Source: Patescibacteria group bacterium
GTDB lineage: Bacteria > Patescibacteriota > Microgenomatia > 0-14-0-10-38-17
Reading direction: 5' to 3'
Assembly: GCA_050947035.1 (NCBI GenBank)
Contig: JBMNVW010000003.1
Span: 25,992-89,991 of the forward strand
Length of the DNA stretch: 64,000 bases
In this document: positions 252 through 61,780 of the stretch, in pieces
Layout of the letters: each line of letters opens with the position of its first letter
Numbering within the stretch: position 1 is the stretch's first letter
Program-made: the position numbers and the translations under genes
The notes under the pieces: model-generated
The model's input: only the letters and a program-made list of their open reading frames with translations
Databases searched by the model: none
Told to the model about the DNA's origin: nothing

Positions 252-328
252 TGGTCGGGGATGCCGGACTCGAACCGGCGGCCTCACGCACCCCATGCGC
301 GCGCGCTAGCCATCTGCGCCAATCCCCG
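252..328 (-). tRNA. tRNA-Pro (anticodon GGG), CCA encoded
   Basis: Reverse complement folds as acceptor CGGGGAT/ATCCCCG, D-arm GCGC-AGATGGCTA-GCGC, anticodon stem CGCGC/GCGTG with loop AUGGGGU (U33, GGG, G37), T-arm GCCGG-TTCGAGT-CCGGC and ACCA tail. Close to the E. coli tRNA-Pro pattern CGGnGATTGGCGCAG. Confidence 0.85.
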
Positions 329-577: not shown

Positions 578-590
578 ATTAAAAATTTCA

Positions 591-12379: not shown

Positions 12380-12411
12380 TAATTTAATCCCCTTTTTGCT
12401 ATAATATCTTT

Positions 12412-12747: not shown

Positions 12748-12803
12748 CTTTTTTTATCAAAACCTTGACGACCGGCTTTTTTTTAGAGTAATCTATCGTT
12801 AAT

Positions 12804-14321: not shown

Positions 14322-14340
14322 AAAAAATAATTAAACCTAA

Positions 14341-15330: not shown

Positions 15331-15423
15331 TTTACTTCGGGGCTTTTTTTAATTTCAAAAGGGGACAAGACACCAAAAAACCCACCTGTCTTAACTTAAA
15401 AAAAAGTTCAAATTAAGCAAGTG

Positions 15424-15456
15424 AGTTGTTTTGGTTGTTTGAAAAGAAACAACTCG
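15424..15456 (-). terminator. stem-loop downstream of the minus-strand zinc-ribbon gene
   Basis: GAGTTGTTT...AAACAACTC perfect 9-bp stem. Confidence 0.45.
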
Positions 15457-15462
15457 AGCCGT

Positions 15463-15606
15463 TTATGCCATGGGCAAAACTCGGTACATACCAGTTCCAC
15501 AAGTGGGACAATTGGCTTTAGCGGCGCGGCGGCCGTTTTTCCAAGTAACGGTTTCGTAGTTGTCAACTTCTTTCTTTTCGCGACATTTAACGCAATAAAA
15601 GGTCAT
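15463..15606 (-). CDS. small zinc-ribbon protein (CxxC...CxxC; DUF5679-like), 47 aa from the internal Met
   Basis: MTFYCVKCREKK..ANCPTCGTGMYRV. AAGGAGGTG SD 6 nt upstream of the ATG at 15606. The track start at 15657 has no SD. Confidence 0.5.
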   Translation of the reverse strand: MTFYCVKCREKKEVDNYETVTWKNGRRAAKANCPTCGTGMYRVLPMA

Positions 15607-15670
15607 TCTTGTCACCTCCTTCCGGGCAGATTGATAAAAATTTAAATTAACTGACAAATTTTAGCCTTAT

Positions 15671-15877
15671 CTACAGTTGCCAGTATAGCACAAGCTGAAA
15701 GACAAGGACAAGTAAGGCTAAAAAAAGGCTTTTGGCTAAGTCTTTTTTTACCCATAAAGTTTCTGAGGAAATTAATTTAGTTTCTGACTGGTTTGCCGAG
15801 GAAGACAATTTAGAAGAAAATAGGGCTTTTTTTCTTAGATCGGAGGCTTGTTTTTCTTTTTTAGTTTTCTTAACCAT
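15671..15877 (-). CDS. possible small membrane-anchored protein (Lys-rich N-terminus, C-terminal TM); doubtful
   Basis: ORF only. Weak SD, and it lies in a repeat/structured intergenic zone. Confidence 0.2.
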   Translation of the reverse strand: MVKKTKKEKQASDLRKKALFSSKLSSSANQSETKLISSETLWVKKDLAKSLFLALLVLVFQLVLYWQL

Positions 15878-15956
15878 TAGCCTTATCTTAGCCTAAGTGT
15901 GGCTAGTTTGCAAGAAGCAAGAGAAAAAAAACTGTCTTGTTCCAACCGAGAAAAGA

Positions 15957-15995
15957 CGAGATCCTTCGGCCGCTTGAGGCGATCTCAGGATGAGG
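15957..15995 (+). repeat. half copy (3' arm) of the GTCATCCTGA..CGAAGGATC hairpin repeat family
   Basis: GAGATCCTTCGgccgcttgaggcgaTCTCAGGATGAGgg aligns with the 3' halves of the copies at 25381 and 55888. Confidence 0.4.
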
Positions 15996-16175
15996 GAAAA
16001 GAAAGGTGCCAAGTCAGACCTGACTACTTTGAACAATGGAATAGCGAACTTGTGCCGTGTACCCTTTGTGGCACTGCGGTTAGTTCGTGCTAGTTATATA
16101 ACCATATAACCATCTAGCCATTATTCTTTTTTTTTATTGACATTATCATCATGAGAAAGTTATTATAAGGTTGAG

Positions 16176-16646
16176 ATGATTGAGGAGAATTTTTTATCTA
16201 GCCTTAATTTTGTTTGGCTGGTGGTTTTTATTTGGTTGTCAATAATAACCATTTTATTAATTTTGGCCATCAAGCGCTATCGAAAGCTAACCAAAGGAGT
16301 CAAATCAGGAAGCCTGGATAAGATTATTCAAAAATTAATCGCCGATCAAGAAAAAAATCAAAAAGATTTTACCGCCACACAAGAAGAACTCTCCCAGCTG
16401 CAAGAAAAAATCCAGTTTCATTTTCAAAAAAAAGCTTTAGTAAGATATAATCCCTTTAACCAAACTGGCGGTAATCAGAGTTTCTCTTTGGCCTTGTTAG
16501 ATGGAAAAAACAATGGTATAGTTATTTCTAGTTTTCATAGCCGAGAAGGAACAAGACTTTATGCTAAAACCGTGGTGTTAGGAAAGGCAGACAATTCCTT
16601 TTCCAAGGAAGAAAAGTCGGCAATAAAAGAAGCGGTTAAAAAATAA
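16176..16646 (+). CDS. membrane-anchored hypothetical protein (single N-terminal TM; DUF4446-like)
   Basis: ORF with an N-terminal hydrophobic helix. Putative TTGACA promoter at 16135. Confidence 0.4.
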   Translation: MIEENFLSSLNFVWLVVFIWLSIITILLILAIKRYRKLTKGVKSGSLDKIIQKLIADQEKNQKDFTATQEELSQLQEKIQFHFQKKALVRYNPFNQTGGNQSFSLALLDGKNNGIVISSFHSREGTRLYAKTVVLGKADNSFSKEEKSAIKEAVKK

Positions 16647-16649
16647 TTT

Positions 16650-17840
16650 ATGAGTAAAGCAAAGAAAATCCTTATCATTGGGGGAGTAGGCTTATATTTG
16701 ATTGCTACTAGTATTTCTTGGGCAGTTTTTGCTTATTTTAATCAAGACACGGTGGTAATATCCCCTGATAACAGGGATGATTTAGAAACAGTTGAGGCCT
16801 TGGGGCCGCGAGACCAGGAATGTCCGATTAATGGAGCTTATTTTACTAAAACGGAGAGAGAAATTTGGGAAACTCGTCGTCCTCTGACAATAACAGTAGA
16901 AAATCATCTTGACTCTCGACCGCAATCTGGTCTGTCTCGAGCAGATGTTGTTTATGAGGCTGTCGCTGAGGGAGGAATTACTCGGTTTTTGGCGGTTTTT
17001 TATTGTGGGGCCGCTCTTCCTGGGGAGCAAAAATATGATATCGGTCCGGTTCGTTCCGCCCGGACTTATTTCTTAGATTGGGTTTCTGAATACGGTGATT
17101 ATCCTCTTTATGTTCATGTTGGCGGAGCCGGTGAATGCGCTGATCCGACTGTTTATGAGGAGGCTAAGGCTCTATGCCAAATTCGCCAGTATGGCTGGAT
17201 GAATGAGGGCACCTGGGGTGATTTAAATCAATTCTCTCTTTCTTATGAAGAATGTCGTCGGGATACGCGCTTGGGAACCAATGTGGCGACGGAGCATACA
17301 ATGTATTGCGATACAGTTACTCTTTGGGAAAAAGTAGCAGAAAATCGGGGCCTAACAGCCAAAACAGCGGCTTCAGGGGATAGTTGGGACAAGAATTTCC
17401 GTTCTTGGCTATTTAAAGAAGAGGCCAAGTTGGCTGATCGTGGCGAAACTGACGAGATTGGTCTTTACTTTTGGAAAAACCAACCCAATTATAATGTTAC
17501 TTGGCGGTATGATCGAGAAAATAATATTTATCAGCGTTATCAGGGTGAAGTTGCTCATAAAGATCTGGTAGCTGATGATATTTTAGCGGCCAAAACGGTA
17601 ATTGTCCAATTCGTTAAAGAAAGAGGTCCGGTTGATGAAAAAAAGCACCTTCTCTATGAGACGATTGGCTCTGGTCGGGTTTTAATTTTCCAGGATGGTC
17701 AAGTTGAAGAAGGGGTTTGGGAAAAAGAGGCTCGCACCAGCCGAACTCGTTTTTATGACAGTTCAGGAGCAGAAATTCGTCTAAATCGGGGATTAATTTG
17801 GGTGGAGATTGTTCCAGCCGGCAACCAAATCGATTTTTAA
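16650..17840 (+). CDS. secreted/membrane-anchored DUF3048-like protein (YerB-like)
   Basis: N-terminal signal anchor and the long conserved extracytoplasmic domain RP.SGLS.ADVVYEA.AEGGITRF. Confidence 0.5.
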   Translation: MSKAKKILIIGGVGLYLIATSISWAVFAYFNQDTVVISPDNRDDLETVEALGPRDQECPINGAYFTKTEREIWETRRPLTITVENHLDSRPQSGLSRADVVYEAVAEGGITRFLAVFYCGAALPGEQKYDIGPVRSARTYFLDWVSEYGDYPLYVHVGGAGECADPTVYEEAKALCQIRQYGWMNEGTWGDLNQFSLSYEECRRDTRLGTNVATEHTMYCDTVTLWEKVAENRGLTAKTAASGDSWDKNFRSWLFKEEAKLADRGETDEIGLYFWKNQPNYNVTWRYDRENNIYQRYQGEVAHKDLVADDILAAKTVIVQFVKERGPVDEKKHLLYETIGSGRVLIFQDGQVEEGVWEKEARTSRTRFYDSSGAEIRLNRGLIWVEIVPAGNQIDF

Positions 17841-17844
17841 TTTT

Positions 17845-18420
17845 ATGCTTCGCCAACTTTTTGTTTCTAAGGTAAGGGTTAAACTGCTAAAAACCTATTT
17901 TGCCAATCCTGACAAGCCTCACTATGGTCGACAGTTGTCTCGCCAGTTAGAGGAACAAATTAACGCTATCCGTCGAGAACTAGACAACTTGAAAACGATT
18001 GGGTTGTTAGAAAGTGAAAAAAGAGGCAACAGAATTTATTTTTATTTAAACCACGATTTTATTCACTACGAGGCCCTGTTATTATTATTTTTAAAATCTA
18101 CTGATTTAGGTGGGGCAATAATTAAAAATCGGTCTCGTTTGGGAAAATTAAAATGGGTCTTTTTTTCAAAAAGTTTTGCCGAAGGCAAAGCCAGTCAAAA
18201 AGAGGCGATTGATATTTTTGTGGTTGGGGAAGTTATTTTGCCAGAATTATCGGCTCTTGTAGCTCAAGAAGAGAAGAAAAGAGGCCAAGAAATTAATTAC
18301 TCAGTTATGGATGAGGCTGAGTTTCGTTTTCGTTATTCAGGCAAAGACCCCTTTTTAACCCGCCTGCTCATGTTGCCCCGATTTACAATTTTGGGAAATG
18401 AAGACCACCTTTTAAATTAA
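17845..18420 (+). CDS. putative winged-helix transcriptional regulator
   Basis: The N-terminal ~70 aa look like a wHTH (KLLKTYFANPDKPHYGRQLSRQL..IRRELDNLKTIGLL). Start moved to the ATG at 17845. Confidence 0.35.
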   Translation: MLRQLFVSKVRVKLLKTYFANPDKPHYGRQLSRQLEEQINAIRRELDNLKTIGLLESEKRGNRIYFYLNHDFIHYEALLLLFLKSTDLGGAIIKNRSRLGKLKWVFFSKSFAEGKASQKEAIDIFVVGEVILPELSALVAQEEKKRGQEINYSVMDEAEFRFRYSGKDPFLTRLLMLPRFTILGNEDHLLN

Positions 18421-18430
18421 GTTTTTTTAA

Positions 18431-19762
18431 ATGAAACCAGTTAAAAATTTTCTTATTATTCTTTTTTTAACCCTTTTTTGCCTTTATCTTAATTTACCCG
18501 ATCAACTGTCTTGGCCGAAAAATTTTTTGGGTCAAAATTTTGATGGGCAGATTAACATCCCTCATCCAACCCTATCTTTGGCCGGATGGCAAATTCCTAC
18601 CCGCTACCCTTTGCGTTTAGGTCTAGATTTGGCCGGCGGCAGTCATTTAGTTTTTGAAGCTCAAACTCAAGATTTACCGGAGGAGGAAAAAAGCCGCCTA
18701 TCGGAATCGTTGATAGAAAATATTAGAAGAAGAATTGATATTTATGGTGTTTCTGAAAGCCTGGTTCAATCAGCCTGGGAGGAGGAGTCTTTAAGGGTTA
18801 TTGTTGAATTACCGGGGGTTGAGGATACCCAAGAGGCAATTAATTTAGTTGGTCAAACTGCCCAACTTGATTTTCGTCGTCAAATTGATGAGGCCTCTGC
18901 CTCCGCCGGTTTTGTATCTACTGATTTGACCGGGGCGGATTTAGAATCGTCGGGGGTTGATTTTAATCCTAACACTAATCAGCCGGTAGTAACCTTAGAG
19001 TTTACTAGTCAGGGAAAAGATAAATTTGCTCAAATTACCCAAGAGGTTAGGGGCCAAATTTTGGCTATTTTTTTGGATGAAGTGCCCTTGTCTTTTCCAG
19101 TGGTAGAAGAACCAATTACTCAGGGCCAGGCCTTAATTAGTGGCGACTTTAGCCTTGAAGAGGCAAAAAAACTTTCGGCCCAACTTAACGCTGGGGCTTT
19201 GCCAGTTTCTTTGGATTTAATTAGTCAAAAAACCGTTGAGGCAACCTTGGGTAACCAGGCGATTCAAAAAAGCATTCGGGCCGGTATGGTTGGCTTGGCG
19301 GCGGTGCTAATTTTTATTTTAGCCTTTTACGGTAAATTGGGCCTTTTGACTTGTTTTTCTTTATTTATTTATACCTTAGTTTCTTTTTTCTTGTATCGGG
19401 CTATTCCCATTACTCTGACTTTACCGGGAATTGCTGGTTTTGTTCTTTCGGTGGGAATGGCGGTTGACTCTAATATTGTTATTTTCGAAAGAATAAGGGC
19501 CCAAAAACGGTCTGGCAAAAGCGGTCGAGTTGCCCAAGAGCTGGCTTTTGGCAAGGCCTGGGAGTCTATTAAAGATGCCAATATTTGCACCCTTATTGTT
19601 GGTTTTGTCTTGTTTAATCCTTTTGATTGGTCTTTTTTACCCCTAGCTGGAATGGTTCGCGGCTTTGCTTTAACCCTAAGCTTGGGGGTAATTGTTTCTT
19701 TATTTACGGGGATTATTGTTACTAGGAATTTAATGAGAGTATTTTCGAGGAACACGAATTGA
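18431..19762 (+). CDS. secD: protein translocase subunit SecD
   Basis: LGLDLAGGSHLVFEA, six C-terminal TM helices. Confidence 0.9.
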   Translation: MKPVKNFLIILFLTLFCLYLNLPDQLSWPKNFLGQNFDGQINIPHPTLSLAGWQIPTRYPLRLGLDLAGGSHLVFEAQTQDLPEEEKSRLSESLIENIRRRIDIYGVSESLVQSAWEEESLRVIVELPGVEDTQEAINLVGQTAQLDFRRQIDEASASAGFVSTDLTGADLESSGVDFNPNTNQPVVTLEFTSQGKDKFAQITQEVRGQILAIFLDEVPLSFPVVEEPITQGQALISGDFSLEEAKKLSAQLNAGALPVSLDLISQKTVEATLGNQAIQKSIRAGMVGLAAVLIFILAFYGKLGLLTCFSLFIYTLVSFFLYRAIPITLTLPGIAGFVLSVGMAVDSNIVIFERIRAQKRSGKSGRVAQELAFGKAWESIKDANICTLIVGFVLFNPFDWSFLPLAGMVRGFALTLSLGVIVSLFTGIIVTRNLMRVFSRNTN

Positions 19763-19796
19763 ACGAATTTAATCACTAATTAAACGAATAAATAGA

Positions 19797-20654
19797 ATGA
19801 ATTTTATCAGATATCGATTTGTTAGTTTTATTTTTTCGGGTTTGTTAATTTTGGCCTCAATTTATGGTTTGGCCCGTTTTGGTCTACTTTTAGGAGTGGA
19901 TTTTACTGGTGGCTCATTAGTGGAGGTTTTGTCAGAGGAAGACAAGGATCAACTTAAAAAGGAGCTTGAGGAAGTTGGCCTAGTTGTTGATCAAATTCAA
20001 GAAACAGGTAGTGGCAGCTTGCTGATTCGCCTTGAAGGGGCCTGGCAGGAAAAAGATGACTTGATTTCTTTTTTTGAAAATAGAGAGGCTCAGATTTTAC
20101 GTTTTGAGACCGTGGGGCCTACTTTTGGCCAAGAATTATTCAAAAAAGCCCTAACCGCAATTGGTTTGACAATAGTTCTGATTCTTGCTTTTATTGCCTG
20201 GCGATTTGGCGATTTTAATTTTGGTTTAGTGGCAATTATTGCCATGATTCATGATAATCTGGTTCTTTTGGGGGCTTTTTCTTTTTTGGGCCAATTTTTG
20301 CTGGCCCCGGTGGACTCTTTGTTTATTACCGCTGCCCTAACCACCTTGGCCACTTCAGTTTATGATACGGTAGTTACTTTTGGTTATATTGGTGATCAAT
20401 TAAAGCATTCTTTTTCCTCGACCAATATTGAAGAAGCGGCCAATGAAGCTATTAATGCTACGGTGGTAAGAAATATTAATAACTCCTGGACAATTATTTT
20501 TATGTTAATAGCAATTTTGCTTTTAGGGGGAGAGACAGTAAGCTGGTTTGCCGCCGCTTTATTGATAGGGACAATTTTAGGGACTTATTCCTCAACTTTT
20601 TTGGCTGTGCCCCTTTTGGTAGTTTGGCAAAAGGCAAGGGCGAAAGAAAAATAA
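19797..20654 (+). CDS. secF: protein translocase subunit SecF
   Basis: GVDFTGGSLVEV, SecF TM bundle, immediately after secD. Confidence 0.9.
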   Translation: MNFIRYRFVSFIFSGLLILASIYGLARFGLLLGVDFTGGSLVEVLSEEDKDQLKKELEEVGLVVDQIQETGSGSLLIRLEGAWQEKDDLISFFENREAQILRFETVGPTFGQELFKKALTAIGLTIVLILAFIAWRFGDFNFGLVAIIAMIHDNLVLLGAFSFLGQFLLAPVDSLFITAALTTLATSVYDTVVTFGYIGDQLKHSFSSTNIEEAANEAINATVVRNINNSWTIIFMLIAILLLGGETVSWFAAALLIGTILGTYSSTFLAVPLLVVWQKARAKEK

Positions 20655-20659
20655 ATAGC

Positions 20660-22051
20660 CTATTCTTGGGTCTTAGAGGAAGAAGAGAACTGCTTTTCCA
20701 GCTTCTCTAATAAGGCTTTTTTATTGTTGGGGATTTGACCTTCTTCAACTTGATTAAAAAGAGCCGATAGAATTTCCCCCACTCGAGGGCCAGGAGGAAT
20801 ATTTAATTTTTCCATAACGTCATGACCGTTAATTTTTAGGTCTTTAATTGAAAAGGGTTCTTTTTGGACCTCAACTAATCTTTTTTTGAATAATTCCGTT
20901 CGCCAGGAAGTTTGTTTGGCGCCACTGCCTAGGCGATCGCCAGTACGAAGGGAAAGCATATCAGGGACATCCTTTTTGCCGACTCGACGAATAAATCTTT
21001 TAATGGCTTTATCAGTTTGTTTTTCAGAAACAGAAAATTGATGGTGGCGGACCAATTTTGTTAGACGATCTTGATCTTTTTTGGACAGCTTTAGTCTTTT
21101 ACCAATTTGACGAGCCAGCGAAGCCCCGACCACCTCGTGATTATGGAAAGTTCTTTGGCCATTTTTATCTTCAACAACAATGGGTTTACCGACATCATGA
21201 ATGAGGGCGGCTAGTTTAACAACAGGGTCTTGGCTGGGGCAGTATTGGGCGGATAAAAGAGAGTGTTTCCAAACTCCCCAAATATGATGGCCTTTTTGCT
21301 CCATTTGATAGCCCTTAATTAACTCTGGTAAAAGATAATTAATTAGGTCAGTTTTTCTTAGAGTTTCGAAAGCTGATTCAATCTGATCAGTAAGAAGAAT
21401 TTTGAATAATTCTTGGCGAATTCTTTCCCAAGAAACATTTTTAATTAATGAGGCTTGGTTTTTAATGGCCGATAAGGTTTTTTTTTCGATTTTAAAATTA
21501 AGTTGGGCTGATAGACGAACGGCTCGCAATAATCGCAAGGCATCTTCAGCAAAGCGCTTTTGAGGTTCACCCACGGTCCTGATTAGGCCGGCTTGTAAAT
21601 CTTTTTGACTAGAAAATTCATCGACTAGTTTTGGCTGAAAAGATTTTTGTTTAGCCCAAACCCCCAAAGCCAGAGCGTTGATAGTAAAGTCCCGTCGGGA
21701 GAGATCTTCCTCAATGCTTTTTCCCCAGGTAATTTGGTTGGGGTGGCGGTGGTCTTGATAGCCAGATTCGGATCGGAAAGTGGTAATTTCGATTTGTCTT
21801 TTTTTTTGGGCAATTTTAACCGTACCATAGGTATTATCATAAAAGCTTTTCGGGAAAAGTTCTTGAGTTTTTTCTGGTGGGGCTGATGTGGCCAGGTCCA
21901 AATCTTCTATCGGCCGATCAAGCAAAAGATCTCGAACTGCCCCGCCGACCAAAAAAATATCAAAACCGGCTTGATAGAATATTTTTAATATGGGCAGTAT
22001 TTCTTTGGGAAGTTTTTTAAGTAGGTTTTTGGTAATTGTGTCTTTTTTCAT
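20660..22051 (-). CDS. cca: CCA-adding tRNA nucleotidyltransferase with C-terminal HD domain
   Basis: FLVGGAVRDLLLDRPIEDLDLAT head domain motif. HD domain HDVGKP. Confidence 0.9.
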   Translation of the reverse strand: MKKDTITKNLLKKLPKEILPILKIFYQAGFDIFLVGGAVRDLLLDRPIEDLDLATSAPPEKTQELFPKSFYDNTYGTVKIAQKKRQIEITTFRSESGYQDHRHPNQITWGKSIEEDLSRRDFTINALALGVWAKQKSFQPKLVDEFSSQKDLQAGLIRTVGEPQKRFAEDALRLLRAVRLSAQLNFKIEKKTLSAIKNQASLIKNVSWERIRQELFKILLTDQIESAFETLRKTDLINYLLPELIKGYQMEQKGHHIWGVWKHSLLSAQYCPSQDPVVKLAALIHDVGKPIVVEDKNGQRTFHNHEVVGASLARQIGKRLKLSKKDQDRLTKLVRHHQFSVSEKQTDKAIKRFIRRVGKKDVPDMLSLRTGDRLGSGAKQTSWRTELFKKRLVEVQKEPFSIKDLKINGHDVMEKLNIPPGPRVGEILSALFNQVEEGQIPNNKKALLEKLEKQFSSSSKTQE

Positions 22052-29011: not shown

Positions 29012-29076
29012 TTATTCGGCAGTGGATGATTTTCATGTTTGAGTATAGCATTGGCAAGTGATAAAATTCAAACCAA

Positions 29077-30493
29077 GATGAAACCTGTTCGTGTTCGTTT
29101 TGCCCCCTCACCCACTGGTGTTCCTCATATTGGCAATACCAGAACGGCTCTTTTTGCCTGGCTACTAGCTCGTCAAACCGGCGGCCAATTTATTGTTAGA
29201 GTGGAGGACACTGACCAAAAAAGATACCAAGAAAAATCTTTAGAAAAAATTTTAGCGATTTTAGAATTTTTAGATCTTTTCTGGGATGAGGGGCCAAAGG
29301 TTGGCGGTCCCCACCAACCCTACTTTCAGTCTCAGCGTCTAAAGCGCTACCAAGAAGTGGCTCAAAAACTGGTTGATAAGGGGGTTGCTTATTATTGTTT
29401 CTGTTCTTCGGCTCGGTTAAAAAATCTTCGCCAAGAACAAAAAGCCACTGGTAAAATTCCCAAATATGATCGCCATTGTTTGTCCTTATCAAAGTCAGAA
29501 ATTGAAAAGAAGAAAAAAACTACCCCCTATGTTATTAGATTGAAGATGCCCGATAATCAGGATTTTACCTGGAAGGATTTAGTCCAGGGTGAAATTACCA
29601 TTAATTCTAAAGATTTAGATGATCAGGTCTTGCTAAAATCAGACGGTTTTCCCACCTATCACTTAGGTGTAGTTGTTGATGATCACGATATGGAAATTAC
29701 CCACATTATTAGGGGAGTAGAATGGATTTCCTCGACTCCCAAACACCTCTTGCTGTATCAAGCTTTGGGTTGGGAGGTGCCCCAGATTATGCACCTGCCG
29801 CTTATTTTGGGGCCAGATAAGAGCAAATTGTCCAAAAGGCATGGAGCTAAGTCAATTCTTGATTATCGGGATGAGGGTTATTTAAAAGAAGCTCTGATTA
29901 ATTTTATGGCTTATCTTGGCTGGTCTTATCAAGATAACTCCCAACTGCTTTCCCTAGAAGAATTAGTAGGGGTTTTTGATTATAAAAAGATCCAAAAACA
30001 AAATGCTGTTTTTGATATTAAAAAACTAGATTGGTTTAATGCTCAATATATTAGAATGAAGAGCGATAAAGAATTAACTAAATTATTAAAACCCTTTGCT
30101 CCCGAAGAGGCGGATAAAGAGTTATTGATTAAAATTGTCCCTCTAGTTAAGGATCGGATGACGAAATTATCAGAATTTAGAAATTTAGCCGGGTTCTTTT
30201 TTGAGACTCCAAAAGTAGAAGAGACCCTTTTAGTCGAGAATGTTAAGGGGGATTATAAGAATTATTTGGCTAAAGCCATTGAGGCTCTTCAACCTATTAA
30301 AGAATGGCAGGAAAAAGAAATAACCCCAAGGTTAATGGATTTGATTGAAGAAAATGATTGGCCAACGGGCGATTTTTTTATGAGTTTGCGGATTGCTATT
30401 GCTGGTTCTCGTTATACCCCGCCGATTAACGAGTCAATGGAAATTTTAGGTAAGGAGGAAGCCTTAAAGAGAATAAAAAAACTACTTGACTGA
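29077..30493 (+). CDS. gltX: glutamate--tRNA ligase
   Basis: RFAPSPTGVPHIGN (HIGH), KLSKR (KMSKS). The ATG at 29077 is preferred. Confidence 0.9.
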
Positions 30494-30543: not shown

Positions 30544-30615
30544 TGCCGGGTGGAGTAATGGTAGTCTCATCGCGCTCTGAACGCGAAGATCTAGGTTCGA
30601 GTCCTAGCCCGGCAA
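30544..30615 (+). tRNA. tRNA-Gln (anticodon CUG), CCA not encoded
   Basis: U1-A72 acceptor TGCCGGG/CCCGGCA, 3-bp D-stem, anticodon stem TCGCG/CGCGA with loop CUCUGAA, T-arm CTAGG-TTCGAGT-CCTAG. Confidence 0.8.
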
Positions 30616-30845
30616 CATTAGTTGCTGGGCTTAGACGAGAACCTAGTAAAGGCTCTGATTAACAAGACGAAAAAGCCGGTCGAGCTGTTGTTATATTAAT
30701 TAACAAGGCAAGAATACGGTCCTTGTCGTCTTCGAGTCCTAGCCGGGCAACATTAGTTGCTGGGTTTAGACGAGAACCTAGTAAAGGCTCTGATTAACAA
30801 GACGAAAAAGACAATCGTGTTGTTGTTATCTCAACCAAGCTATCA
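30597..30845 (+). repeat. ~134-nt tandem direct duplication (about 1.9 copies) beginning inside the tRNA-Gln T-loop
   Basis: TTCGAGTCCTAGCCCGGCAACATTAGTTGCTGGGCTTAGACGAGAACCTAGTAAAGGCTCTGATTAACAAGACGAAAAAG at 30597-30675 is repeated at 30731-30810 with 2 substitutions. The following ~30 nt are also similar. Confidence 0.75.
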
Positions 30846-30920
30846 CCTCAGGGTTTCCACCTTAAAGGTGTCAAAAGGGTTTTTTTTGAATAATAGAGGA
30901 CAAGGGGTTAAAATATAGCT

Positions 30921-41025: not shown

Positions 41026-43410
41026 ATGTCTCTGATTTTAAAACCAGAAAAGAAAAACCAAGAACAAAAAGAAATGACCGTTGTTGCTCTTAGAGATACG
41101 GTTATTTTCCCTCGTACCGAGGCAACGCTTACCTTTGGCCGACCTCAATCAGTAGCGGCAGTTAATCAGGCTTATAAAGAGAAAAAGGCTGTTTTGTTAG
41201 TTTGCCAAAAAAACCCTCGAGTTAATAATCCCGACCAAGACGACCTTTATCAAATTGGCACTATTGCTAAAATTGATAATATCTTAAAGTCTGGTAAGGC
41301 TATTTATGTTATTGTCAGAGGGGAAAGTCGGGCTCGTCTAGAAAGTCTTTCTCAGAAAAAACCCTTTTTAGCCGGACAAATTAGCTCCTTACCAAAAGGG
41401 AAAATTGCCTCTGGAAAAGATATTAATGTTTTGGCTGGGCTTTTAATTGAGCAGTTAAAGAAAGCGATGAGTTTGGGTAAACCGGTTGATCCTCAAGCTT
41501 TGGGTAATTTGTCTTCAGATGACCCTCAGGAACTGGTTAATCGAATTGCCATGGTGGTGGAGATTTCTGGTAAAGACAAACAGTCTTTATTGGAAATTGA
41601 TGATTTGGCCAAGCGAGCCAAAAAAGTGGTTGAATATTTGGTCCAAGAGATTAAAATTTTGGAGCTTGATCAAAAGATTAGTTCTAAGGCCCAAGACAAG
41701 TTTGATAAGTCAATGAGGGAGGCAATTTTAAAACAGCGTCGAGAGATGATTGATCGGGAATTAGGGAAAATAGGCTCTAAGTCCGGTAACCCCGAAATTG
41801 AAAAATTAAGAAAAAAAATCTCGGCCAGTAAGATGCCCAAAAAAATTGCCAAAAAAGCCAAATCGGAGCTGTCTCGATTGGCCAAAATGTCGCCCATGAA
41901 CCCGGAAAGTGGCTATATTCATTCTTATTTAGAGTGGTTAACCGACATTCCTTGGGTTAAAAAATCTAAAAGCAACCTTGATATTAAAAAGGCCAAAAAA
42001 ATTCTTGATCAAGACCATTATGGTTTAAAAAAAATTAAAGAGAGAATTTTAGAGCACTTGGCGGTAATTCAGTTGCAAAATAAACAAAAAGAAGAAGCTT
42101 GTTCACCGACCATTCTTTGTTTTATTGGCCCCCCCGGAGTAGGAAAAACTTCGGTTGGTAAGTCAATCGCTCGAGCAATGGGAAGAGAGTTTGTTCGTAT
42201 TTCTTTGGGGGGCTTGCGAGATGAAGCCGAAATTAGAGGTCATAGAAGGACTTATGTTGGTGCTTTGCCGGGGCGCTTGATTCAGGGCATGAAAGAGGCG
42301 GGGACAATTAATCCGGTTTTTATGTTGGATGAGATCGACAAGGTGGGCAATGATTTTCGTGGCGACCCGTCGGCGGCCCTATTGGAAGCTTTGGATCCAG
42401 AGCAAAACAAGGAGTTTTCCGATCATTATTTGGGAGTGCCCTATGATTTGTCCCAAGTCTTTTTTATTACTACCGGCAATGTTTTAGACACTATTCCGCC
42501 GGCTCTTCGAGATCGAATGGAAATAATTCGTTTTCCCGGCTATACCGGTGAAGAAAAATACCATATTGCCAAAGACTATCTTTGGTCCAAAGAGACCCAA
42601 AACCGTGGGTTAGGCAAAAATAAATTTAAATTAACAACAAAAGCCTATTACGAAATTATCGATCGTTATACTAAAGAAGCTGGAGTTCGTCAGTTGCAAA
42701 GAGAGATGGCTCGTTTAGCTAGAAAATTGGCTAGAGAAATTGCTGAAGGAAAAAAGATGGAGGAAAAGATTGGCGTTAATCGGGTCCGTTCTTTGTTCGG
42801 GCCAGCCCAATTTTCTAAAACTGCTGCCGATAGTCAGGATGAGATTGGTAAGGCCACTGGTTTGGCTTGGACTCAGGCAGGAGGAGAAATTTTGTTTATC
42901 GAAGTGGCTCTAATGCCCGGCAAAGGGAAAGTTTTATTAACGGGGAAATTGGGCGATGTGATGAAGGAATCTTGTCGAGCGGCTATTTCTTACGTCCGCT
43001 CCCATTGGCAGATCTATAAGCTAAAGAAGGATTTTGCCGAAAAAATTGATATTCATGTTCACGTGCCAGAGGGGGCGGTTTCTAAGGATGGTCCCTCAGC
43101 TGGTGTGGCTATTGCCTCGGCGGTTGTTTCGGCTTTAACCAAAAAACCCCTAAAGCACGAAATCGGCATGACCGGAGAGATCACCCTTCGCGGACGAGTT
43201 TTGGAGATTGGTGGGGTAAAGGAAAAGGTTTTAGCTGCCCACAGAGCTGGTCTAAAAACAATAATTTTGCCCAAGAGTAATAAAAAGGACCTGGAAGATA
43301 TTCCTTCTCGAATCAAGAAAGAGTTAGAGTTTATTTTTGCTGAACATCTAAGTCAGGTTCTTGATCAAGCTTTGGTAAAGAAAAAACCTGACAAAACAAA
43401 GTCTTCTTAA
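41026..43410 (+). CDS. lon: ATP-dependent protease Lon
   Basis: LON N domain, GPPGVGKTS, catalytic PKDGPSAG..KEK dyad region. Confidence 0.95.
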   Translation: MSLILKPEKKNQEQKEMTVVALRDTVIFPRTEATLTFGRPQSVAAVNQAYKEKKAVLLVCQKNPRVNNPDQDDLYQIGTIAKIDNILKSGKAIYVIVRGESRARLESLSQKKPFLAGQISSLPKGKIASGKDINVLAGLLIEQLKKAMSLGKPVDPQALGNLSSDDPQELVNRIAMVVEISGKDKQSLLEIDDLAKRAKKVVEYLVQEIKILELDQKISSKAQDKFDKSMREAILKQRREMIDRELGKIGSKSGNPEIEKLRKKISASKMPKKIAKKAKSELSRLAKMSPMNPESGYIHSYLEWLTDIPWVKKSKSNLDIKKAKKILDQDHYGLKKIKERILEHLAVIQLQNKQKEEACSPTILCFIGPPGVGKTSVGKSIARAMGREFVRISLGGLRDEAEIRGHRRTYVGALPGRLIQGMKEAGTINPVFMLDEIDKVGNDFRGDPSAALLEALDPEQNKEFSDHYLGVPYDLSQVFFITTGNVLDTIPPALRDRMEIIRFPGYTGEEKYHIAKDYLWSKETQNRGLGKNKFKLTTKAYYEIIDRYTKEAGVRQLQREMARLARKLAREIAEGKKMEEKIGVNRVRSLFGPAQFSKTAADSQDEIGKATGLAWTQAGGEILFIEVALMPGKGKVLLTGKLGDVMKESCRAAISYVRSHWQIYKLKKDFAEKIDIHVHVPEGAVSKDGPSAGVAIASAVVSALTKKPLKHEIGMTGEITLRGRVLEIGGVKEKVLAAHRAGLKTIILPKSNKKDLEDIPSRIKKELEFIFAEHLSQVLDQALVKKKPDKTKSS

Positions 43411-43416
43411 AGCAAA

Positions 43417-43445
43417 TTGATTAATGTTAACTTCCGAGGTATAAT
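43417..43445 (+). promoter_or_regulatory. near-consensus sigma70-type promoter (TTGATT-17-TATAAT) immediately after the lon stop
   Basis: TTGATT 43417-43422, 17-nt spacer, TATAAT 43440-43445. Confidence 0.4.
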
Positions 43446-43579
43446 ATTAGCTATAGGTCTTATTTCAAGAGACCGTTTTCATTCTTAAAAACAAAAAACC
43501 AAGCTGATAAGCCAGCGACTGTTTTTTTGTTTTGAACTTTTATAAACAGGCGGTAGGAAGTTTCTTCTAGGAGGAAAAA

Positions 43580-43957
43580 ATGAAGAAAAGAGGAAGAACC
43601 GGGTGTTGGTTTGTTTTTTTGATTTTGTTATTTATTGTTTGCTACGTGTTTATTAACACCTTTTGGCAACCCCTCTCGGAAGGAACGAGGGTAAAAATTA
43701 ACGGCAAGGGTTATTTTAATCCCCTTTGCTGCGGCGATTATCCGTTCGAGAACTGGAGTGGAAGCCAGCGCCGGCAGTGGTGTTGGAACAGAGCCACTCT
43801 AGTGGAAGAAACCATTGGAGTGATTGAGGCCGGAGGGGATTATGAAACCCACTACAGTAGCCGGGGAGGATCGGCCTATAGAGTGGTTTTCACCACTACT
43901 TTAGGTAATCAGAGAACCTTGTGGTTCTCGGTTGATTCTCTAGAAAAGATTGACTAG
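43580..43957 (+). CDS. Cys/Trp-rich membrane-anchored hypothetical protein
   Basis: AGGAGG SD. N-terminal TM. Confidence 0.35.
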   Translation: MKKRGRTGCWFVFLILLFIVCYVFINTFWQPLSEGTRVKINGKGYFNPLCCGDYPFENWSGSQRRQWCWNRATLVEETIGVIEAGGDYETHYSSRGGSAYRVVFTTTLGNQRTLWFSVDSLEKID

Positions 43958-43964
43958 GCTTGTA

Positions 43965-44004
43965 GGGGGTCGTGTTCAAAATTTTGCGTTTTAACGCGAC
44001 CCCC
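43965..44004 (+). terminator. GC-rich hairpin terminator
   Basis: GGGGGTCGTG..CGCGACCCCC, a 10-bp stem, then ATTTTT. Confidence 0.5.
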
Positions 44005-44062
44005 CCAGCCATTTTTCAATTCTTCCTACCGCCCCTTTTCTTTCCCCAAAGCCTTCTTTTGG

Positions 44063-44080
44063 AGAGATCCTGGATCTATC
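44063..44080. repeat. copy of the GATAGATCCTGGATCTATC palindrome family (imperfect left arm)
   Basis: agAGATCCTGGATCTATC. Confidence 0.7.
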
Positions 44081-44202
44081 ACGGCTTATTGTGAGGGTTA
44101 TTTTTGAGGTTCTGGTAAACTCGGCCCAGTTTCAAGCGATCCGGTTTCTTTAGAAATTGATTTTTGTTTCACCAGGATATTTTTTTAGGCTATGGGACTA
44201 AG

Positions 44203-44290
44203 GATAAATACGACACCGTATTTATTAATAAAAGAATAAAAATATTATTTATCGCTTTATCCTGACAAGTAAATACTTTACCGTATTTAG
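44203..44290. promoter_or_regulatory. bipartite palindrome pair: GATAAATACGACACCGTATTTATT, then TAAATACTTTACCGTATTTA 65 nt downstream
   Basis: Same two-site arrangement and spacing as at 61163-61249 and 61800-61887. Confidence 0.6.
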
Positions 44291-44350
44291 AAAGAAGAGT
44301 TTACAAATATCCGCTAACAATTTTCTATCGGAATTTTATTTAATGGTTTT

Positions 44351-44373
44351 AAGTAGCCCCAACCAGATTCGAA
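44351..44373 (-). repeat. 23-bp direct repeat of the tRNA-Glu 3' end (T-loop + acceptor 3' strand + 3 nt), 110 nt downstream of the tRNA
   Basis: AAGTAGCCCCAACCAGATTCGAA is identical at 44351-44373 and 44481-44503. Confidence 0.8.
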
Positions 44374-44483
44374 GATGACACGGACCATTTTCTTGCCGTG
44401 AGGGTTGGTGTAATGACAGCGCGGTTGTTTTTCTTGTTTTGATTGTCAGAATTCTTGACCAGTTCGGATCCGATTGGGCCAAG

Positions 44484-44555
44484 TAGCCCCAACCAGATTC
44501 GAACTGGTATTACTAGGATGAGAACCTAGCGTCCTAACCATTAGACGATGGGGCC
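44484..44555 (-). tRNA. tRNA-Glu (anticodon CUC), CCA not encoded
   Basis: Reverse complement: GGCCCCA-TC-GTC-TAATGGTTAG-GAC-G-CTAGG-TTCTCAT-CCTAG-TAAT-ACCAG-TTCGAAT-CTGGT-TGGGGCT-A. G1-U72 wobble. Confidence 0.8.
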
Positions 44556-44720
44556 TTGAGAAAAATTCCTAATTTTTAATGATTTAAATGGCCTAATTAC
44601 TTTTTTTGAAATTTGGGACTTGGGATTTATTTAGAATAATTAAAAACTATTTTCTTAATTATACTAAACCAGCCCCAATTTTACCAAAAAATCGATTTTT
44701 GACTAATCCCAGATTTTAAT

Positions 44721-44749
44721 TTGACAATTGTCAATAAGAATAATATAAT
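44721..44749 (+). promoter_or_regulatory. perfect consensus sigma70 promoter (TTGACA-17-TATAAT); its -35 lies in the 14-bp palindrome TTGACAATTGTCAA
   Basis: TTGACA 44721-44726, spacer 17, TATAAT 44744-44749, ~110 nt upstream of greA. Confidence 0.5.
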
Positions 44750-44860
44750 TTTCTTCACTGTTTTGTGACGCACCCCCTAAAAGGGTCCATTTAATCGGGA
44801 TTTTTCCTTACCTCTTTTTAGTGTTTTTAACAAAAAGATTATTTAATTAAAAATTATTGT

Positions 44861-45322
44861 ATGAATCAAAAAAAGCTAATTACCAAACAAGGACTAGCCG
44901 ATCTTAAGGACAAGCTGGCTAAGCTTGAGGCTCGGCGACCCAAGGTGGTTGATCGAGTAGAAACGGCCAGACAAATGGGCGATTTAAGAGAAAATAGCGA
45001 ATATCATGCCGCCAGAGAGGATTTGGTTCTTTTAGATACTCAAGTTAATGAGCTAAAAGAAATTTTACTTAATGCTAAGGTTGTTGATAAAAATAACGGA
45101 TCATCTTTTGTTTCTTTGGAGAGTCTGGTTACCGTTAAGAACGGTCAAAACAAGAAAATAGATTATCGTGTTGTTGGCGAGCACGAATCTGATCCACTAA
45201 AGGGCAAGATTTCTTATACTTCTCCCTTGGGCCAGGCTCTGATGAATAAAAAAGTTGGTGAAAAGGTGGCTGTTAAAACCCCCAAGGGTAAGAGTAAATA
45301 TGAAATTGTGGCCATTAAATAA
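44861..45322 (+). CDS. greA: transcription elongation factor GreA
   Basis: Coiled-coil N-terminus with ARQMGDLRENSEYHAARE. FKBP-like C-terminus. Confidence 0.9.
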   Translation: MNQKKLITKQGLADLKDKLAKLEARRPKVVDRVETARQMGDLRENSEYHAAREDLVLLDTQVNELKEILLNAKVVDKNNGSSFVSLESLVTVKNGQNKKIDYRVVGEHESDPLKGKISYTSPLGQALMNKKVGEKVAVKTPKGKSKYEIVAIK

Positions 45323-47355: not shown

Positions 47356-47388
47356 AAAACTATAGGAAATTCAGCCTAAGATTATTAA

Positions 47389-47407
47389 TAGATCCTGGAT
47401 CTCTATC
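47389..47407. repeat. copy of the GATAGATCCTGGATCTATC palindrome family, 7 nt upstream of the serS start
   Basis: TAGATCCTGGATCTCTATC. Confidence 0.7.
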
Positions 47408-48685: not shown

Positions 48686-49990
48686 AAACTTGTCTTCAGA
48701 ATCGATTATTTTAACAGGAAGGATTTCACCGATTAAATCTTTTTTCTTGTTTTCTTTAGTCTTGATTTTGGTTGGCCAATAGTTATCAGAAAGCCCCCAC
48801 CAACCGTAAGAAGTAGGTTTTAAAATTAATATTTTTCTGGTTGTGCCAAGCAAAAAGTTTCTTTCTTTTTTTCGATTTTTCTTGATGAGGGTAAGAAGTT
48901 TATTTCTTCGTTTCTTTTTGATTTGATCAGAAATTTTGGACCAGGCTTTATTTTTAACCATTTTTTTAGCTTTAGTTTGCGGACGAGGAGAATAAGAAAA
49001 AAGATGGCCAAAGGAAAATCGGTTTTTTTTAATAAATTCTTGAGTTTGGTCAAATTCTTGATCGGTTTCGCCGGGAAAACCAATCATAATGTCGGCCCGA
49101 AGAGTAAAATAAGGAAGAATTTCTTTAATATAATGTAGCGATTGGCTCAATTGTTTTAAATTGGTCTGGCGGTTCATGCGCTCTAAAACCGTTTCTGATC
49201 CGGACTGAAGGGCCAAATGCCAATATGAAGATAAGCGTTGATTTTTTTCTTGATCGGTAATAAAAATATTGATTAGTTTTTGATCGATTAATTTGGGGGT
49301 TAGTGAGCTTAGTGACAATCGGGGGATTTTAGTTTTTTTTAAGATTTCCTCAATTAAATCGGCAAAAGTAGTCGGCGAATCAAGATCCTGACCAAAAAGA
49401 GAAAGATTGATACCACAAATAATAGCCTCTTTTGCTCCGGCCTGATGAGCCTGATTAATTTCTTTGACGATTTGTTTTGGTTTTTTACTAGTTTGCTTTG
49501 TTCTTAAATAGGGAACAATACAATAAGAACAAAAATGGTTACAACCATCCTGAATTTTAACAAAAGCTCGCTTGATAGATCCTGGATCTATCAGAGCCTT
49601 TTGTATAGGGAGATCCTGGATCTGGCAAGAAAAAGCGAAGTGTTTGGTAATAATTTTAGGGATGGTTGATTTTTTTTCGTTGGTAATGAATAAATCAGCC
49701 GGTGGTAATTGCTTTTTTTTAGAAACTTTGAGCCAGAGGTTGGCCGCACAACCGGTAGCGATTAAGAAACAATTAGGGTAAATTTTTTTAAAATGGCGAA
49801 TGGCTTTAGCGCTTTCTCGTTCTCCTTTTTGGGTAATAACGCAGGTATTGATAATAACAATATCGGGTGACTGGCCATCTTTGGCCTTCTGATAACCAAG
49901 GTTGATAAGCTGATTACTGATTTTTTTAGTTTCGGCTTGGTTAACTCGGCAACCTAAGGTTTGGGTTAAAAAAGTAGCTTTGGCGGACAT
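48647..49990 (-). CDS. MiaB-family radical-SAM methylthiotransferase (MtaB/RimO-like, with a C-terminal TRAM-like region)
   Basis: TLGCRVNQAE..INTCVIT, IQDGCNHFCSYCIVP radical-SAM motif. Confidence 0.8.
   Translation of the reverse strand: MSAKATFLTQTLGCRVNQAETKKISNQLINLGYQKAKDGQSPDIVIINTCVITQKGERESAKAIRHFKKIYPNCFLIATGCAANLWLKVSKKKQLPPADLFITNEKKSTIPKIITKHFAFSCQIQDLPIQKALIDPGSIKRAFVKIQDGCNHFCSYCIVPYLRTKQTSKKPKQIVKEINQAHQAGAKEAIICGINLSLFGQDLDSPTTFADLIEEILKKTKIPRLSLSSLTPKLIDQKLINIFITDQEKNQRLSSYWHLALQSGSETVLERMNRQTNLKQLSQSLHYIKEILPYFTLRADIMIGFPGETDQEFDQTQEFIKKNRFSFGHLFSYSPRPQTKAKKMVKNKAWSKISDQIKKKRRNKLLTLIKKNRKKERNFLLGTTRKILILKPTSYGWWGLSDNYWPTKIKTKENKKKDLIGEILPVKIIDSEDKFLWGNFVKANQAS
49574..49623. 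repeat. two copies of the GATAGATCCTGGATCTATC-family palindrome inside the MTTase CDS (perfect 19-mer at 49574-49592, AGATCCTGGATCT at 49611-49623)
   Basis: These encode ..CQIQDLPIQKALIDPGSIKRAF.. in the minus-strand protein linker. Confidence 0.8.
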
Positions 49991-61336: not shown

Positions 61337-61780
61337 GTGACCAAGTTACCCAAAAAACCGTTATCGATAAAAAAGGAAAAAGAAATCTTGGCTAATTTTG
61401 ATCAGTTTTTAGGGGCGATTGATAAAAAAGACGATTGGCAAATAATTTGTGAAAGTCTCTTAACCCCCACCGAAAGGTTAGTTTTGGCCAAAAGACTGCA
61501 AATGGGAATTTTGCTTCTTAAAGGCTATTCTTATCAAAAAATTGAACAAGAACTAGACACCAGCTCTACCACCATTGCCAAAATTGCCAATATTTTTTCT
61601 CGCCAGACCCGATTAGCGGACCTAGTTCATTTCATTTTTCTTTATCCAGAAGAAAATAAACCGCCGAAAGAAAAACTTTCCCCTCATCCTAAAGTAAACC
61701 GGGCCCTAAAAATGATGGGTTTTAAAGAAAAAACTTTTTATGAAAAGTTAGGCCAAAAAGAGAAAGAAAAAAGGGGCTAA
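61337..61780 (+). CDS. TrpR-like/YerC-YecD-family DNA-binding protein
   Basis: LLTPTERLVLAKRLQMGILLLKGYSYQKIEQELDTSSTTIAKIAN HTH region. Confidence 0.5.
   Translation: MTKLPKKPLSIKKEKEILANFDQFLGAIDKKDDWQIICESLLTPTERLVLAKRLQMGILLLKGYSYQKIEQELDTSSTTIAKIANIFSRQTRLADLVHFIFLYPEENKPPKEKLSPHPKVNRALKMMGFKEKTFYEKLGQKEKEKRG

Follow-up and report, generated by a model that had tools for sequence, protein, structure and literature searches.

A composite gene-free region behind tRNA-Glu in a Patescibacteria genome carries a tRNA-end trailer module and a predicted TrpR-type operator pair

Introduction

Miniature inverted-repeat transposable elements (MITEs) carry conserved terminal repeats, which are transposase binding sites, and are flanked by target duplications of 2-10 bp. 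Sequence that lies immediately 3' of a tRNA can also be functional, and the 3' external transcribed spacer of an Escherichia coli tRNA operon acts as a sponge for small RNA (sRNA). In integrase-type tRNA islands, as catalogued by Islander (PMC4383910), an intact tRNA gene is accompanied by a displaced direct copy of its 3' portion, from the T-loop to the end, the flanking genes are hypervariable and tandem accretion occurs at one tRNA. Regulators of the TrpR family bind 20-bp palindromes, and about half of the hisR genes have a candidate site in front of themselves (PMC9413887). Here we describe positions 43958-44860 of a 64,000-nt stretch of Patescibacteria DNA (the whole stretch is called the window below), a spacer of ~900 bases between a small open reading frame (ORF), ORF125, and greA. 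It contains a tRNA-Glu(CUC) gene, a non-coding module behind the 3' end of that gene which includes a displaced copy of the tRNA end, and a pair of palindromic operators.

The module resembles the known systems in part and departs from each of them. Like an integrase island, it leaves the tRNA intact and displaces a fragment of the same tRNA, here a 23-nt repeat that starts at the T-loop. In contrast to such an island it measures 107 nt, holds no ORF, integrase or kilobase cargo, and has no recombinase Pfam domain in the gene lists of its flanks; neither a free element nor a related phage or plasmid was found in viral contig, phage and plasmid records. Moreover, its core is found behind two tRNAs, each time with matching ends, and an inverted copy of half the tRNA abuts the tRNA gene. 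With MITEs and with repetitive extragenic palindromic elements and bacterial interspersed mosaic elements (REP/BIME) it shares a length of ~110-130 nt, a non-coding, multi-copy and intergenic nature, mutually inverted ends, and the occurrence of tandem and truncated copies. Unlike those of MITEs, its ends vary with the neighbouring tRNA while the core is conserved, so that the Glu and Gln ends are completely different; the sole flanking repeat is 21-25 bp long and coincides with one terminal repeat, and insertion is seen at tRNA 3' ends only. Functional tRNA trailers are likewise conserved sequences immediately 3' of a tRNA that processing enzymes could release, whereas the module is known from DNA alone, has weak predicted structure, is repeated in tandem and is absent in some close relatives.

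The operators share with those of TrpR and HisR/YerC (PMC9413887) a 20-bp palindrome with conserved outer half-sites, the presence of sites before the regulator's own gene, and a lineage-specific sequence on the same geometry. They differ in that the half-site TAAATAC / GTATTTA fits neither consensus, that the palindromes come in pairs 65 bp apart, one pair lying behind a tRNA gene without an ORF, and that the host has little biosynthesis.

Results

A repeated tRNA-Glu end and its trailer module

The spacer 43958-44860 is a composite intergenic region of four parts and not a single relic. Conserved promoter and leader DNA of an ordinary kind makes up roughly one third of it; the remainder is fast-changing DNA behind tRNA-Glu, in which the module is found. 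The module (44351-44480, ~107 nt) begins 2 nt past the tRNA, from which no terminator separates it, and consists of an inverted copy of the tRNA 3' half, a core and a direct copy of the tRNA end (Table 1). The direct copy forms an exact 23-nt repeat (44351-44373 = 44481-44503), seen twice against 0 expected by chance. The inverted copy and the tRNA-Glu 3' half are predicted to form a hairpin of -34 kcal/mol; across loci, inverted copies that abut a tRNA give hairpins of -28 to -39 kcal/mol, and loci lacking the inverted copy give none. A second or unusual tRNA, or a tmRNA-like gene, was considered for 44351-44482 and rejected, as neither ARAGORN nor Rfam calls one there and the direct copy, which includes a T-loop and a 3' strand, lacks a partner for the T-stem. 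In the literature, no specific description of an equivalent module was found.

An earlier note on this DNA, made from its letters alone, had listed a GC-rich terminator hairpin, one member of a palindrome family, a complete operator pair, a 23-bp duplicate of the tRNA-Glu 3' end and the minus-strand tRNA-Glu(CUC) itself, and every one of these features was recovered (Table 1). It had also called the spacer gene-free and the largest non-coding stretch in the window, which proved correct. The spacer contains no ORF of at least 50 aa (the longest are 48, 47 and 40 aa), a Pfam search with its small ORFs was empty, and none of them retains its length and sequence in L043-L046, barring those that lie on ultra-conserved promoter DNA or on the tRNA. 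Small ORFs, 64 and 68 aa long, are present in the second-largest gap of the window (15330-16176), which leaves 43958-44860 as the largest non-coding stretch. In Rfam, tRNA was the sole match over 43300-45000 at E values up to 10, and a match to a known family, which the earlier note had named as refuting its view, was not found beyond the tRNA; Rfam 15 applied to the whole window at the gathering score returned three tRNAs and RNase P and nothing else, and four relatives returned tRNAs alone.

Table 1. Features of the spacer between ORF125 and greA (positions in the window).
Feature	Position	Strand	Remarks
Inverted copy of the tRNA-Glu 3' half (acceptor 3' strand and T arm)	44458-44480	minus	21 nt, 86% complementary
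Module core	44374-44457	minus	CAAGAATTCTGAC, then AACAACCGCGCTGTCATTACACCAAC, hairpin CACGG/CCGTG, GTCATC
Direct copy of tRNA-Glu, from T-loop base 1 to 2-3 nt past the 3' end	44351-44373	minus	exact 23-nt repeat
Short block TTAAAACCATTAAATAAAATTCCGATAG past the displaced tRNA end	44323-44350	minus	related to GGTYATTAAAGAAAAAT
Predicted operator O1 TAAATACGACACCGTATTTA	44205-44224		20-bp palindrome, TrpR-family type
Predicted operator O2 TAAATACTTTACCGTATTTA	44270-44289		65 bp from O1, start to start
tRNA-Glu(CUC), no encoded CCA	44483-44555	minus	ARAGORN; Rfam tRNA 63.8 bits; orthologous in all relatives
tRNA-Glu promoter-like site TTGGTA-18-TATAAT	44658-44687	minus	score 10/12; putative transcription start
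Predicted greA promoter TTGACA-17-TATAAT, sigma-70 type	44721-44749	plus	score 12/12
greA 5' leader, ~105 nt	44756-44860	plus	identical in L043, near-identical in L044
Predicted intrinsic terminator hairpin of ORF125	43965-44004, T run to ~44018	plus	GC-rich, 16-nt arms, 88% complementary
17-nt inverted repeat bracketing ORF125 and its terminator	43544-43560 (ORF125 leader) / 44022-44038		88% complementary
19-bp palindrome GAGAGATCCTGGATCTATC, core AGATCCTGGATCT	44062-44080		one mismatch to the family sequence

The tRNA-Glu locus was compared in L001-L004 and L043-L048; other L-numbers used below are further fetched contigs of relatives. Judged by GreA (44861-45322), the closest relatives among genomes are the metagenome-assembled genomes L001-L004, which are labelled Candidatus Shapirobacteria (65-74% identity), and two metagenome contigs are closer still (L043, 98%; L044, 87%). 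Lon (41026-43410), tRNA-Glu(CUC) on the minus strand, greA, lysS and an HD-domain gene stand in the same order in all of these relatives. The interval from Lon to the tRNA-Glu 3' end ranges from ~0 to 1.7 kb and differs in content: it is ~0 nt in L047 and L048 and 160 nt in L001, contains the module alone in L004, two tandem modules and a PP2C-like gene in L002, and ORF125 plus modules in the window group (the window, L043 and L044) and in L045.

Direct repeats of the tRNA-Glu 3' end recur in this interval in L043 (22/23), L044 (25/25) and L002 (a 55-nt repeat at 98%), as well as in L045, where the repeat is broken inside the T-loop by an insert of 80 nt. One module follows tRNA-Glu in L043 and in L044, and two follow it in tandem in L002. 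In the single modules of L003, L045 and L112, the 80-nt insert interrupts the direct copy at the T-loop; the one in L004 lacks the direct copy altogether, L046 shows the first part alone, and in L001, L047 and L048 the module is absent from this place.

Related modules behind tRNA-Gln

An nhmmer profile built from 7 module copies recovered the family with E values from 1e-36 to 6e-9, behind tRNA-Glu in L002 (two copies), L003, L045, L112, L004, L043 and L044 and behind tRNA-Gln in the window, L134, L142 and L139; in the last three relatives the copies directly follow the tRNA. In the window, the trailer of tRNA-Gln gave matches at 30635-30752 (E=4e-15) and 30769-30837 (E=5e-6). This tRNA-Gln(CUG) gene (30544-30616) comes after the GluRS gene (29039-30493), and tRNA-Glu and tRNA-Gln would both be expected to be charged by the GluRS encoded there. 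The region behind it (30617-30890) consists of a full module (30617-30733), a 22-nt copy of the tRNA-Gln end with 1 mismatch, a partial second module and a terminator-like hairpin, the tandem array spanning 30617-30840. In repeat density, this flank is about equal to 43958-44860. The ends of the module follow the local tRNA and the core is common, as illustrated by TCAACAAGGCAAGAAAACGACCCTTGTCGTCTTCG behind tRNA-Glu of L045 and TTAACAAGGCAAGAATACGGTCCTTGTCGTCTTCG behind tRNA-Gln of the window. Since the core family thus recurs behind tRNA-Gln with glutamine-tRNA ends, a one-off scar is ruled out.

Several features of the copies are signs of ongoing recombination. Tandem modules are found behind tRNA-Glu in L002 and behind tRNA-Gln in the window, L134 and L142, and the two tandem Gln copies of the window share three substitutions relative to both L134 copies, which argues for homogenisation between tandem copies. 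A second half-module in L044 has the T-stem type GCGAG of other lineages and not the CCAG of its host. In L142 the direct repeat is the exact end of the local tRNA, while the inverted copy missed a change in the acceptor stem, and its hairpin reaches -28 kcal/mol compared with -38 to -39 in L139 and the window. L137 and L141 have no module, and that of L139 is truncated and lacks the 3' copy. In L135 and L136 a different block of ~110 nt follows tRNA-Gln directly; its opening motif, GGTYATTAAAGAAAAAT, also stands after the direct repeat of tRNA-Glu in L043 and L044, and the block past the displaced end in the window is related to it. Every relative has a different set of genes beyond tRNA-Gln, with defence-type genes among them. 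Given the combination of tandem copies, homogenisation, a half-unit of foreign type and variable content, the 3' flanks of tRNA-Glu and tRNA-Gln are recombination hotspots.

Further observations were made around these and other tRNAs. Downstream of tRNA-Gln, L136 carries Ham1, GmrSD, RadC and Fic genes and a type I restriction-modification system (10970-20699) and L137 a DpnI-like gene (11530-14311), which suggests that this region is a defence-island hotspot. Between the GluRS gene and tRNA-Gln, where the window has 50 nt, L134 (11461-12363) and L139 (2532-3143) have a LAGLIDADG-like ORF with a faint or weak Pfam match. At tRNA-Pro(GGG) of the window (252-328, minus strand), approximately the first 40 nt of the tRNA are copied at ~590-700, and an ORF that resembles, as judged by eye, a GIY-YIG nuclease lies between the tRNA and the copy (~330-590, minus strand); the locus looks like a partial tRNA duplication around an inserted nuclease gene.

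Palindromic operators and a TrpR/YerC-like gene

The pattern TAAATAC-N6-GTATTTA occurs at six exact sites in the window, where 0.67 loose matches are expected, and these sites form three pairs, all spaced by 65 bp: the pair in the spacer, at 44205 and 44270, and pairs at 61164/61229 and 61802/61867. With a spacer of 7 nt instead of 6 there were zero matches, so the real spacer is 6 nt. The three pairs share just the 20-bp palindromes and not the surrounding DNA. O2 at 44270 is identical to O2 at 61229 and 61867. O1 at 44205 has two central changes relative to the perfect palindrome TAAATACGGTACCGTATTTA, which is the form found at 61164 and 61802 and also at the orthologous O1 of L043 and L044; the half-sites of O1 and O2 are intact in the window.

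The pair at 61164/61229 lies in front of an ORF (61337-61780) that matches Pfam Trp_repressor (E=5.7e-9), and the pair at 61802/61867 precedes the next gene, which encodes a secreted LTD-domain protein. A regulator homologue of 84% identity has TAAATACTATATAGTATTTA pairs, 65 bp apart, at the same two positions, and homologues of 51% and 38% identity have palindromes both upstream and downstream of the gene (ACATACGGTACCGTATGT and GATACGGCAGCGTATC, respectively). Thus, ATAC-N6-GTAT palindromes adjoin regulator homologues at 84, 51 and 38% identity, and since the palindrome footprint holds across these three distances the TrpR-like protein is the likely binder of O1 and O2. In ~1 Mb of fetched loci, such operators were observed solely at regulator genes and behind tRNA-Glu or tRNA-Gln. 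By their palindromes, half-sites and co-occurrence with the regulator gene, O1 and O2 are TrpR-family operators at the level of sequence, although binding by the protein itself is something we infer.

At the tRNA-Glu locus, the pair is present at the equivalent place in L043, L044 and L046, in the last despite a different left neighbour, a PP2C-like gene; the DNA between O1 and O2 is well conserved when the window is aligned with L043 and L044. Behind tRNA-Gln, L135 has one operator, oriented likewise. The asymmetry of the operators points to the tRNA at every tRNA site, and two readings were therefore considered, in which the pair would either promote antisense transcription in the direction of the tRNA or stop transcripts that read through from it. 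Under both readings, the pair would most likely act on transcription around the trailer. In front of the regulator gene, a promoter-like TTGAAA-18-TAGGAT that is conserved in L127 lies downstream of both operators, with O2 near -60 and O1 near -125, positions more usual for activation or looping than for simple occlusion.

Promoters, leader and terminator at the two edges of the spacer

The right third of the spacer (44556-44860) is ordinary, strongly conserved regulatory DNA, with back-to-back promoters and the greA leader. The promoter-like site of tRNA-Glu and that of greA lie on opposite strands, 34 bp apart. The -10 block of the former, TTTAGTATAAT, is kept in L001-L004 and L043-L045, and in the same relatives TTGACAA(T) and a near-TATAAT -10 are kept at the orthologous positions of the latter, which by its two hexamers, 17-bp spacing and conservation is a predicted sigma-70 promoter. 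The earlier note had presented it as a textbook promoter whose -35 sits in a palindrome; the promoter stands, but the palindrome TTGACAATTGTCAA around the -35 is exact in L043 only and has one change each in L044 and L045, and beyond these relatives just TTGACAA(T) is conserved. In the three-way alignment of the window, L043 and L044, 44660-44860 is almost invariant, exceeding the conservation of the adjacent coding DNA. E. coli greA also has a leader, and the leader found here, which is partially conserved in L045, L002, L001 and L004, may be regulatory. A structured leader was considered and rejected, prediction giving one weak consensus hairpin only; a T run was seen after this hairpin.

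At the left edge, ORF125 (43580-43957; 125 aa) has no Pfam match and has homologues in L043, L044 (122 aa) and L045 (119 aa). Described earlier as one of two housekeeping neighbours of the spacer, it is a real, conserved and lineage-specific small protein gene, but one of no known family, for which the word housekeeping has no support. Its terminator and the conserved DNA on its 3' side occupy 43958-44100. L043, L044 and L045 share the hairpin at 43965-44004, the T run is conserved, and in L044 a compensatory change converts GGGGGTC/GACCCCC to GGGAGTC/GACTCCC; from its GC-rich stem, U tract and compensation, it is predicted to be an ordinary terminator. A simple terminator scanner missed it, probably since its loop exceeds the limit of the scanner. 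The 17-nt inverted repeat that brackets ORF125 and the terminator shows two compensatory changes in L045 (GGCGGTAGG/CCTACCGCC to GGCAGCAGG/CCTGCTGCC) and a change compatible with a G.U pair in L044. Because L045 compensates twice, pairing of the two arms, or a binding site shared by them, is under selection; the repeat may represent an interaction of the 5' and 3' ends of the RNA, a pair of sites for protein, or the two termini of a small cassette. Upstream, at 43417-43579, a promoter-like TTGATT-17-TATAAT lies right after the Lon stop codon and is followed, before the start of ORF125, by two terminator-like hairpins with T runs, an arrangement conserved in L043 and L045. These hairpins may form an attenuator-type leader; Rfam gives no match in 43417-43579.

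Members of the palindrome family are found in the window at 44062-44080, 47387-47405 and 49574-49592 (0 to 0.1 expected), and its 13-mer core AGATCCTGGATCT, which is also present at 49611-49623, occurs 4 times against 0.1 expected. The palindrome at 44062 is conserved in L043 and L044 and has a variant form in L045. One core copy precedes the start of a serS-like gene by 9 nt and is conserved there in L002, L003, L043 and L045, and two are inside a MiaB-like gene, where they encode IDPGS and QIQDLP. The core could be a binding site or an RNA hairpin.

A GC-rich element of ~115 nt (GAAAACCAYGG...GATGAARCCGATATCAATAG...GGGCGAAACG), not found in the window, was observed at differing intergenic sites of Microgenomates contigs (L044 2330-2445, L046 3850-3965, and also L048 and L129). 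It has no Rfam match and looks structured and mobile.

Discussion

We observe directly the anatomy of the module, its family of copies, the variation in synteny behind tRNA-Glu and the co-occurrence of operators and regulator genes. The reading that we rank first, with a confidence only slightly above even, is that the stretch is composite and that its module is the product of recombination or insertion at the DNA level, at the 3' boundary of the tRNA. The direct repeat would have arisen either as a target duplication or, in the manner of integrase-type integration, by displacement of the tRNA end. The copies would then have been amplified in tandem and homogenised, and recombination at this boundary would make the interval from Lon to tRNA-Glu a hotspot. 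The survey of modules covered three tRNA genes from this genome and ~20 tRNA flanks from its relatives. The earlier note had proposed the remains of a decayed mobile element, or a recombination hotspot, from the density of independent repeat families. The hotspot part is borne out for the left half (43958-44482) only. A single decayed element is not supported, as the right third, the operators, the palindrome and the terminator are each conserved, and no similarity to an integrase, transposase, phage or plasmid was found.

A number of results weigh against an origin by insertion. The Pfam lists of the genes in and near the loci contain no recombinase, integrase or transposase; scans of viral contigs with the module, its junction, the operator pair and two core motifs were empty, and blastn against phage and plasmid collections gave no match. 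The tRNA 3' end did match viral contigs, in complete tRNA genes only and in tRNA-rich contigs. We know of no well-described bacterial element with a 23-bp target duplication or an island of 107 bp. Among the three tRNAs of the window, tRNA-Glu and tRNA-Gln have the module and tRNA-Pro does not, and no promoter conserved among the window, L043 and L044 lies downstream of O2 at the tRNA-Glu site. Furthermore, the core is conserved across species whose GreA proteins are 65-74% identical, beyond what would be expected of a neutral scar, and the tRNA strand favours the hairpins of inverted copy and tRNA by 3-12 kcal/mol, via G.U pairs. Together, this conservation and these G.U-stabilised hairpins hint at selection at the level of RNA.

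The module might therefore be a functional RNA made together with tRNA-Glu, an explanation that we rank second and consider unlikely. In one version, the inverted copy (first ~20 nt) would pair with the direct copy (last ~20 nt) and mimic the acceptor/T-arm helix, and RNase P, RNase Z and the CCA-adding enzyme could yield a stable RNA of ~130 nt with defined ends; in another, the 3' half of the tRNA would be bound by the inverted copy within the precursor, which would delay maturation of the tRNA. Besides the conservation of the core and the hairpins with the tRNA 3' half, always stabler on the tRNA strand, such an RNA would be consistent with a start 2 nt past the tRNA with no terminator in between, and with the folding of each complete unit with a closing stem of inverted and direct copies (-46 and -50 kcal/mol for the Gln units, against -31 with a standard deviation of 4 for shuffled sequences). 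The stem of a T-arm-like hairpin is also of the host's tRNA T-stem type (GCGAG or AYCGG/CTGGU), and an inner hairpin has the compensated variants CACGG/CCGTG, TGACA/TGTCA and ACAAGG/CCTTGT. However, the closing stem arises by construction: both ends derive from one tRNA, and for that reason it is not independent evidence for an RNA. The consensus structure from RNAalifold is almost nil (-3.6 kcal/mol for 7 Glu copies, -7.6 for 7 complete units), whole units do not fold consistently better on the tRNA strand, and an Rfam match is absent. Units are truncated without the 3' copy in L004, L139 and L046 and missing in L001, L047, L137 and L141, and the inverted copies of L142 and L044 are not adapted to the tRNA beside them.

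Less probable again, and third in our ranking, is that the repeat and its 107 nt are the fused attL/attR ends of a larger island or prophage that bore an integrase and was deleted to a stump. An intact tRNA with a displaced, direct-orientation 3' fragment starting in the T-loop is the textbook mark of a tyrosine integrase (Islander, PMC4383910), and the flank is hypervariable, with GmrSD, Fic and type I restriction-modification genes (L136) and DpnI (L137) beyond tRNA-Gln. Against this stands the recurrence of a ~107-nt stump with the same core behind another tRNA, in tandem and in several species, which independent decay would not yield; an integrase was seen in no locus, the inverted copy of half a tRNA is alien to classical att sites, and the viral, phage and plasmid collections held no match. 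A comparable question of decay concerns the operators at 44205-44289, which might be a decaying orphan of a lost regulated gene, for instance the PP2C-like gene, with at most a role in titration of the regulator. The lack of an ORF and of a conserved promoter downstream of O2, the two changes in the centre of O1, and the place of the L046 pair, which precedes the PP2C-like gene by ~360 nt on the strand read for that gene, would fit such an orphan. It is nonetheless improbable in our estimation, since O2 is identical in all three pairs, the half-sites are intact in both operators, O1 is perfect in L043 and L044 and the inter-operator spacer is well conserved; the pair is retained behind tRNA-Glu in four genomes with differing left neighbours, a single operator lies behind tRNA-Gln in L135, and L002 has the PP2C-like gene without an operator. 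The 44205-44289 pair is thus likely a conserved, predicted binding site for the TrpR/YerC-like regulator and not a leftover; the direction of any transcription from it is likewise what we infer.

To go one step further than recombination at the tRNA boundary, the module could be an undescribed small element of tRNA 3' ends in Shapirobacteria, and possibly in other members of the Candidate Phyla Radiation (CPR), which would carry an arm complementary to the 3' half of a particular tRNA gene, guide-like or structure-forming in its action, and would insert or recombine exactly at the tRNA 3' boundary, duplicate the ~23 bp between the T-loop and the 3' end and spread in tandem. It could alternatively be a tRNA-processed RNA whose ends would be defined by its mimic of the acceptor/T helix. 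Either way, its surroundings would be watched by a TrpR-like regulator through operators behind tRNA-Glu and tRNA-Gln. We offer this proposal as speculation and think it doubtful in this full form.

CPR bacteria have tiny and tightly packed genomes, and little is known of how they gain, lose and regulate DNA. In Shapirobacteria, the 3' flanks of at least two tRNA genes are active recombination sites, marked by a common module and by copies of the tRNA ends, and in relatives the flanks of these tRNAs hold variable cargo that includes defence genes. The rest of the stretch, that is, its promoters, leader and terminator, is ordinary. The operators give a candidate regulon of the TrpR/YerC-like regulator, composed of its own gene, the secreted LTD-domain protein and the trailers of tRNA-Glu and tRNA-Gln, and tRNA trailers are an unusual place for sites of the TrpR-family type. 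If the module is mobile or competent for recombination, it would represent a route of integration that needs no element-borne integrase; should it instead be an RNA, it would add a tRNA-linked type to the known non-coding RNAs.

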